This document shows positions 36,156 through 36,635 of a stretch of DNA of 64,000 nucleotides, in pieces (position 1 is the stretch's first letter; the number at the start of each line of letters is the position of its first letter). Made by a program: the position numbers and the translations under genes. The notes beneath the pieces are model-generated. The model was not told where the DNA came from. It saw nothing but the letters and a program-made list of their open reading frames with translations, and searched no databases. The DNA is taken from the NCBI RefSeq assembly GCF_056712565.1, contig NZ_CM160072.1; one strand, 5' to 3'.

Positions 36156-36335
36156 GTCTGGCCTCGATAAAATAATGATGATGATGTTATCAATACTATC
36201 GAAAACAGCCCGAAGCAACGGATTCCTCTATGAAATTATTGCGTGTTGCAGAGGGGATGTGACGGCTGCAAACAAAACCAATCCTGTGAGCCTGCTACTA
36301 TTGATGGATTCATGCCAAAAGCACAGGAGAGCATT

Positions 36336-36598
36336 ATGGGGCAACAAACGCAGCGTAACCGATGTTGGGTTCTGTCCTTGCGTCCGCATGGCGCGCCGGT
36401 TCCTTACGTCTGGTTTCGGTAAATGTGCTCTTTGTCGCACCAGCGCAAGCATTTACAGTTCCGGAAGTGGGAAAACGTCAATTAAATGAAATCAATCGGA
36501 TCCGCTACGAACTGGAATTAATGGCAGTTGCTCTGGCTGTCGAAAACCTCACTATGCAAAAAAACGTTGCTATGTTGTGCCAGCAATACAGCCGATAA
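36336..36598 (+). pseudogene. curA: deletion remnant: first ~22 codons of curA (NADPH-dependent curcumin reductase) joined to a GntR-type C-terminal tail (putative mcbR 3' end)
   Basis: RBS aggaga then ATG; MGQQTQRNRCWVLSLRPHGAPVP matches the recalled CurA N-terminus, then a stop after 28 codons; the overlapping ORF ends ...NEINRIRYELELMAVALAVENLTMQKNVAMLCQQYSR*; the ~1.7 kb expected for curA+mcbR is absent. Confidence 0.5.
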
Positions 36599-36635
36599 AT
36601 AAAATACGCCCGGCAAATACCGGGCTTAAAGATAA

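Follow-up and report, generated by a model that had tools for sequence, protein, structure and literature searches.

The mnaT–pqqU interval of B2-type Escherichia coli as a probable decayed scar of the loss of curA and mcbR

Organization of the interval between mnaT and pqqU

The window analysed here is the whole 64,000-nucleotide stretch of contig NZ_CM160072.1 (assembly GCF_056712565.1), and all positions below are counted from its first nucleotide. Between two intact genes, mnaT and pqqU, a 263 bp remnant (36336–36598) stands in place of curA, the gene of an NADPH-dependent curcumin/enone reductase, and mcbR, the gene of the GntR/FadR-type regulator YncC. Alignment with the mnaT-curA-mcbR-pqqU locus of strain HS and with three more divergent intact alleles explains this interval fully, base by base, and places both of the junctions within it. 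The features of the locus are as follows:

35637–36155, minus strand: mnaT (yncA), intact gene of a GNAT acetyltransferase and left flank of the remnant (open reading frame; annotated as mnaT in the nearly identical ATCC 11775 record)
36149–36176, plus strand: promoter-like site TGGACA-16-AATAAT in the mnaT-curA intergenic region, a candidate curA promoter by consensus match only (10 of 12 positions)
36325–36329, plus strand: AGGAG ribosome-binding site of curA, six bases 5′ of the ATG at 36336 (read from the sequence)
36336–36403, plus strand: curA 5′ stub, curA nt 1–68, i.e., codons 1–22 and two bases of codon 23 (alignment to HS curA)
36403–36404: junction 1, which joins curA nt 68 to mcbR nt 166 (alignment to intact alleles)
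36404–36552, plus strand: mcbR middle fragment of 149 bp, nt 166–314, McbR residues 56–105 (alignment to HS)
36552–36553: junction 2, which joins mcbR nt 314 to nt 621 (alignment to intact alleles)
36553–36598, plus strand: mcbR 3′ fragment, nt 621–666, the last 14 codons and the TAA stop (alignment to HS)
36608–36625: GC-rich hairpin GCCCGG-CAAATA-CCGGGC between the mcbR stop and the pqqU stop (36636), a terminator shared by these convergent genes (terminator-like score on the minus strand)
36636–38738, minus strand: pqqU (yncD), intact gene of a TonB-dependent receptor and right flank of the remnant (open reading frame list and annotation)

Two deletions separate this arrangement from the intact one. 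Deletion 1, which is 1332 bp long when measured against HS and 1333 bp against the other three alleles, removes the remainder of curA, the curA-mcbR intergenic region and mcbR codons 1–55, and it fuses curA to mcbR out of frame, so that the CurA frame ends five codons past the junction. Deletion 2 is 306 bp long and in frame, and it removes McbR residues 106–207. The total missing is thus 1638 bp relative to HS and 1639 bp relative to the others. Microhomology, repeats and filler bases were all absent from both junctions when these were checked against the four intact alleles, and nothing there points to slippage, IS-mediated deletion or any other particular mechanism. The idea that both deletion lengths are meaningful multiples of three was rejected, since deletion 1 is 1333 bp long against three of the alleles and is out of frame regardless.

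The initial annotation of this stretch had described a replacement of the curA-mcbR region by a remnant of about 260 bp with about 1.7 kb missing, and had called the 3′ part a GntR-type tail from the C-terminus of McbR. The remnant size agrees with our measurement and the missing length is close to it. The replacement is real, but it consists of two deletions with a 149 bp piece of mcbR between them, and the tail is indeed derived from McbR (the 78-residue product discussed below matches PDB 4P9F, which is McbR, with E = 9e-26 in two separate stretches) but comes mostly from residues 56–105: 50 of the 64 McbR-derived codons represent the middle of the protein and only the last 14 its C-terminus. 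Residues 56–105 run from the closing part of the GntR winged-helix domain through the linker into the FCD domain, of which they hold the first ~22 residues. The other elements that had been read there, namely a good ribosome-binding site and ATG after mnaT, a CurA N-terminal stub of about 22 codons whose frame closes after 28, the gene order mnaT-curA-mcbR-yncD and the shared terminator hairpin, are all as had been described, and the proposed alignment with an intact locus bears out the remnant.

The locus otherwise resembles the intact one of K-12, HS and other complete genomes in its flanks, the curA upstream region, the ribosome-binding site and the terminal hairpin, and it differs in the 1638–1639 bp that are absent. 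Identity to HS is 96% up to curA nt 68 (293 of 304 bases), and the mnaT-curA intergenic region is retained with 98–99% identity to the intact alleles. The curA stub sits where its intact ortholog does, downstream of mnaT and in divergent orientation to it, and uses the same ribosome-binding site and start codon; the mcbR middle fragment, at its syntenic position, is identical to HS mcbR nt 166–314 at 139 of 149 bases. Overall the pieces are collinear with the intact genes and 7–20% of their positions differ, depending on the segment; because these gene fragments remain, the difference between the two arrangements is a loss rather than a gain. The stem of the hairpin is also kept in the intact alleles, and an Rfam scan of positions 34000–39000 found no Rfam family.

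Coding capacity of the remnant

Two short open reading frames run through the remnant:

36336–36422, plus strand: 28-codon frame MGQQTQRNRCWVLSLRPHGAPVPYVWFR, which encodes CurA residues 1–23 and five out-of-frame residues from mcbR sequence, YVWFR, and ends with TAA at 36420–36422 (sequence and HS alignment)
36362–36598, plus strand: 78-codon frame, which starts at an ATG within the curA stub in another frame and then follows the McbR frame through both mcbR fragments

The 78-codon frame ends 10 bases from the hairpin, and inspection of the sequence upstream of its start found no Shine-Dalgarno motif. Its product holds McbR residues 56–105 and 208–221. Neither the 28- nor the 78-residue product has a Pfam match, while intact CurA is recognized with E = 8e-45. 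In the intact proteins the Pfam domain limits are residues 9–116 (ADH_N_2) and 161–302 (ADH_zinc_N) for CurA and residues 13–74 (GntR) and 84–209 (FCD) for McbR. Thus, of the N-terminal oxidoreductase domain of CurA only residues 1–23 of the protein are left, and its NADPH-binding Rossmann domain lies wholly inside deletion 1; the winged helix-turn-helix DNA-binding domain of McbR is reduced to residues 56–74, with the mcbR start codon and the preceding intergenic region gone, and its ligand-binding FCD domain has lost residues 106–207 to deletion 2. A megablast search with the intact locus matched a single place in the genomes that carry the remnant, with 12–19% coverage, and revealed no further copy of either gene. 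Both genes are therefore destroyed, as had been supposed, and judging from the sequence this scar cannot give rise to functional CurA (345 aa) or McbR (221 aa).

Distribution among complete E. coli genomes

The whole scar is present in 1042 of 5426 complete E. coli genomes (19%), with 1035 records at ≥99% identity and the others at 95–99%. A 120 bp query that spans junction 1 is covered in 1041 genomes and the corresponding query for junction 2 in 1042, and genomes with just one of the two deletions are apparently absent from the collection, as these two counts indicate. Intact curA-mcbR is found in 4357 of the 5426. Carriers span many sequence types, hosts and countries, and they include ATCC 11775, CFT073, Nissle, LF82 and E2348/69, all of them known as members of phylogroup B2. 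The identity of hrpA, a gene 25 kb away, has a distribution with a gap between 97.0% and 95.5%, and the B2-like cluster above this gap contains 1011–1102 genomes, a range that brackets the number of carriers, so that carrier number and cluster size match. Among genomes whose left flank is more than 97.0% identical to that of the window, none has the intact genes. The scar is on this evidence a fixed trait of the whole B2-type lineage, where “B2” is defined by known strain assignments and the hrpA allele cluster.

Over 7 kb compared, the window differs from ATCC 11775 at a single base, position 38711 (T in the window, C in the ATCC 11775 record), near the 5′ end of pqqU. Elsewhere, bovine strain NZ_CP104112.1 has an IS1 annotated between curA and mcbR together with a separate “GntR family” fragment, which may be an independent mcbR disruption outside the B2-type lineage.

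Divergence of the remnant

Fixed differences were counted between eight diverse carriers and four intact alleles. The remnant has 14 in 263 positions (5.3%) and the flanking genes have 8 in 2622 (0.3%), a 17-fold excess in the remnant (Fisher p = 3e-10), and the difference is also significant when only third codon positions of the flanking genes (0.8%) are compared (p = 2e-5). Segregating sites among the eight carriers make up 3.8% of the remnant and 3.5% of pqqU (p = 0.45), and because carrier polymorphism is not significantly above that of pqqU, it is the fixed-difference excess by itself that argues for relaxed constraint. That excess fits a long decay after a loss that would have predated diversification of the lineage, and its size could be inflated by recombination between lineages, which may erase fixed differences in the flanks more easily than across the deletions. 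Within-carrier polymorphism was itself tried as evidence for relaxed constraint and was dropped, since an enrichment over 591 bp vanished when the full flanks were used, pqqU itself being highly polymorphic.

The divergence is uneven: the last 46 nt of mcbR contain 5 fixed differences (10.9%), and in the 37 bp spacer around the hairpin (36599–36635) 7 positions differ from all intact alleles (18.9%), including a 2 bp insertion, with the stem unchanged. Despite the apparent age of the scar, the 28- and 78-codon frames are open and of constant length in all eight carriers, without a stop or an indel.

In pqqU, 73 of 2103 sites (3.5%) are polymorphic among the eight carriers, compared with 1.2% in mnaT, and its fixed differences between carriers and intact alleles amount to 0.14%; this pattern suggests frequent recombination or diversifying selection on the outer-membrane receptor.

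Transcription of the scar in strain LF82

In propionate-adapted adherent-invasive E. coli LF82, “mcbR” was reported to be the single down-regulated gene, with a −20.85-fold change (Ormsby et al. 2020, PMC7034058), and that study places mcbR among genes with roles in biofilm formation. LF82 carries the same scar, and mapping of the primers given in the supplement of PMC7034058 locates the amplicon within it:

36498–36596, plus strand (LF82 locus 19540–19638): 99 bp amplicon of the published LF82 “mcbR” qRT-PCR, across junction 2

The reverse primer matches exactly the LF82 remnant only. Since the amplicon spans junction 2, these measurements show indirectly that the scar is transcribed in LF82. 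The “mcbR” of PMC7034058 is thus the same object as the one described here; it was treated there as the functional regulator McbR, which the LF82 sequence is unable to encode. The curA-mcbR intergenic region, where any separate mcbR promoter would be expected, is deleted, and transcription most likely begins at the curA promoter that survives, for which 36149–36176 is the candidate site. The retained promoter and ribosome-binding site would then probably drive a short transcript through the scar to the shared hairpin, and its translation product would be at most a 28-residue junk peptide. A pure relic need not be regulated, and the 20.85-fold change in LF82 could simply reflect the surviving curA promoter.

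Interpretation of the interval

We conclude, with a probability that we put at roughly 0.9, that the adjacent curA and mcbR genes were lost long ago, that this loss was fixed in the ancestor of the B2-type lineage, and that the interval is its decayed scar. A pair of clean deletions would have left the three pieces that are seen: the regulatory region of curA together with the first 68 nt of the gene itself, the 149 bp internal piece of mcbR and the last 46 nt of mcbR. The initial annotation can be read instead as one strain-specific deletion or replacement of ~1.7 kb that fused the curA start to a C-terminal McbR tail; such an event would account for the 1638 bp missing in all and for the 28-codon frame, and the final 14 codons truly are the McbR C-terminus, but it would not have kept mcbR nt 166–314 between two junctions, and with the same structure in 1041–1042 genomes a strain-specific event is very improbable. 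The chance that curA and mcbR are really present and intact here, and that the gap is an error of sequencing or assembly, is smaller still and in practice negligible: the initial annotation had named an intact pair as the finding that would overturn it, and what is found are identical junctions in more than 1000 independently sequenced complete genomes (1041 and 1042 for junctions 1 and 2), a single base in 7 kb that separates the window from the ATCC 11775 reference, and substitutions that have built up within the scar.

More weight, though still little, goes to two readings that accept both deletions. In one, the remnant has been co-opted, and B2 genomes would retain it for a function of the 28-residue peptide, the 78-residue McbR-derived peptide or the transcript. 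The open frames without indels in all eight diverse carriers, the strong ribosome-binding site of the 28-residue peptide, the in-frame deletion 2, within-carrier polymorphism that is not above that of pqqU, and a detectable transcript whose level changed 20.85-fold in propionate-adapted LF82 (PMC7034058) all agree with such a function, and the 78-residue peptide would consist of the wing, the linker and the first FCD helix together with the C-terminal helix. However, fixed substitutions are 17 times as frequent in the remnant as in the flanking genes, five of the eight polymorphisms in the McbR frame among carriers alter an amino acid, the curA stub is also variable (LSL, LAS and LSS variants), the 78-codon frame lacks a Shine-Dalgarno motif, neither a Pfam domain nor an Rfam family was detected, and 263 bp free of stops and indels is not improbable at a few per cent divergence; a residual function is unlikely. 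We consider it just as improbable that the deleted allele arose not in the B2 ancestor but in a more divergent Escherichia lineage, from which recombination brought it in. The concentration of divergence toward the 3′ side (10.9% in the final 46 nt of mcbR, and 18.9% in the 37 bp spacer with its 2 bp insertion) and the low fixed divergence of pqqU (0.14%) are what an import might leave, but these percentages stand on few sites (5 and 7), a rough estimate of the divergence expected from neutral decay along the long B2 branch comes close to the overall 5.3%, and the curA-proximal flank is ordinary B2-type sequence.

Relation to existing annotation and to other gene losses

Part of this scar has been annotated before. 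The RefSeq/PGAP pseudogene EAS44_RS13305 of ATCC 11775 is the same object (window positions 36392–36559) and has equivalents in CFT073, LF82, E2348/69 and others; it is labelled [quoted passage not shown]. In some genomes (LF82, E2348/69 and others) PGAP also annotates the 69 bp curA stub, as a pseudogene for a “hypothetical protein, missing C-terminus”. These annotations do not use the names curA or mcbR, do not recognize the second deletion and the 3′ fragment, and are silent on the distribution of the scar among lineages, and we found no description of curA or mcbR loss in B2, UPEC or ExPEC strains in the literature searched.

Lineage-wide gene losses in pathogenic E. coli include the cadA “black hole” deletions of Shigella and enteroinvasive strains, and uropathogenic strains have lost the chemoreceptors Trg and Tap. 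As in those cases, a deletion of core chromosomal sequence has gone to fixation across an entire pathogenic lineage, and here a regulator is included; unlike them, the loss of curA and mcbR may be neutral. The scar is an ordinary lineage-specific gene loss, already annotated as a pseudogene.

Consequences for work on McbR and CurA

From the sequence one would predict that carriers have no CurA activity and no McbR-dependent control, either of the retained target mcbA or of other McbR targets. The mcbA gene and its upstream region are kept in 5417 of the 5426 genomes and therefore in at least 1033 of the 1042 carriers. The phenotypes that the initial annotation had foreseen, absence of the curcumin reductase and derepressed mcbA, are predictions of this kind and reasonable ones.

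The significance of the scar is mainly practical and lies in how McbR and CurA work is interpreted in B2 strains. Roughly one in five complete E. coli genomes is unable to make McbR or CurA, among them those of CFT073, Nissle 1917, LF82, E2348/69 and ATCC 11775, and McbR findings from K-12, APEC and EHEC should therefore not be carried over to these strains. This applies to the control of colanic acid and biofilm through mcbA, to CurA-dependent curcumin metabolism, and to the dihydrofolate-linked repression of LEE, McbR having been reported in EHEC to bind dihydrofolate and repress LEE (PMC13343897); the EPEC prototype E2348/69 lacks McbR. At least one published transcriptome and qRT-PCR study, that of LF82 (PMC7034058), took the scar for the biofilm regulator mcbR. 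The two junctions also provide a clean, PCR-friendly lineage marker.

It is conceivable, though we think it rather unlikely, that the B2-wide loss of McbR was adaptive rather than neutral, with the control of capsule, biofilm and stress permanently rewired in this lineage of extraintestinal pathogens and mcbA kept. If so, LEE control would have been uncoupled from McbR in B2 EPEC such as E2348/69, and the still-transcribed scar would be a handy marker of the rewiring.

Other features in the window

Several other remnants and insertions were noted. A trg chemoreceptor gene truncated at its N-terminus adjoins a truncated hok/gef toxin gene (13056–13611), which makes this another deletion scar in the window, and hicB (26997–27233) is a pseudogene without its N-terminus and with no hicA annotated, so that the HicAB toxin-antitoxin pair is a remnant, as it is in LF82 and E2348/69. 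The junctions of truncated trg and hicB were tried as independent lineage markers and were dropped, as their counts (832 and 3031) are confounded by nearby pieces that are joined in intact genomes. The yncG gene (glutathione S-transferase family, 41920–42520) is annotated as frameshifted in ATCC 11775 and LF82. In strain HS an IS1 lies between patD and ortT (positions 2936–3633 of the HS locus), where other genomes have yncL annotated. Between yncG and yddH (43061–47610) the window contains an orphan type VI secretion cassette (a PAAR protein, VgrG, an M35 peptidase and a hypothetical protein) with an ISAs1 transposase fragment, and LF82 has two PAAR-VgrG cassettes at the same yncG-yddH site.
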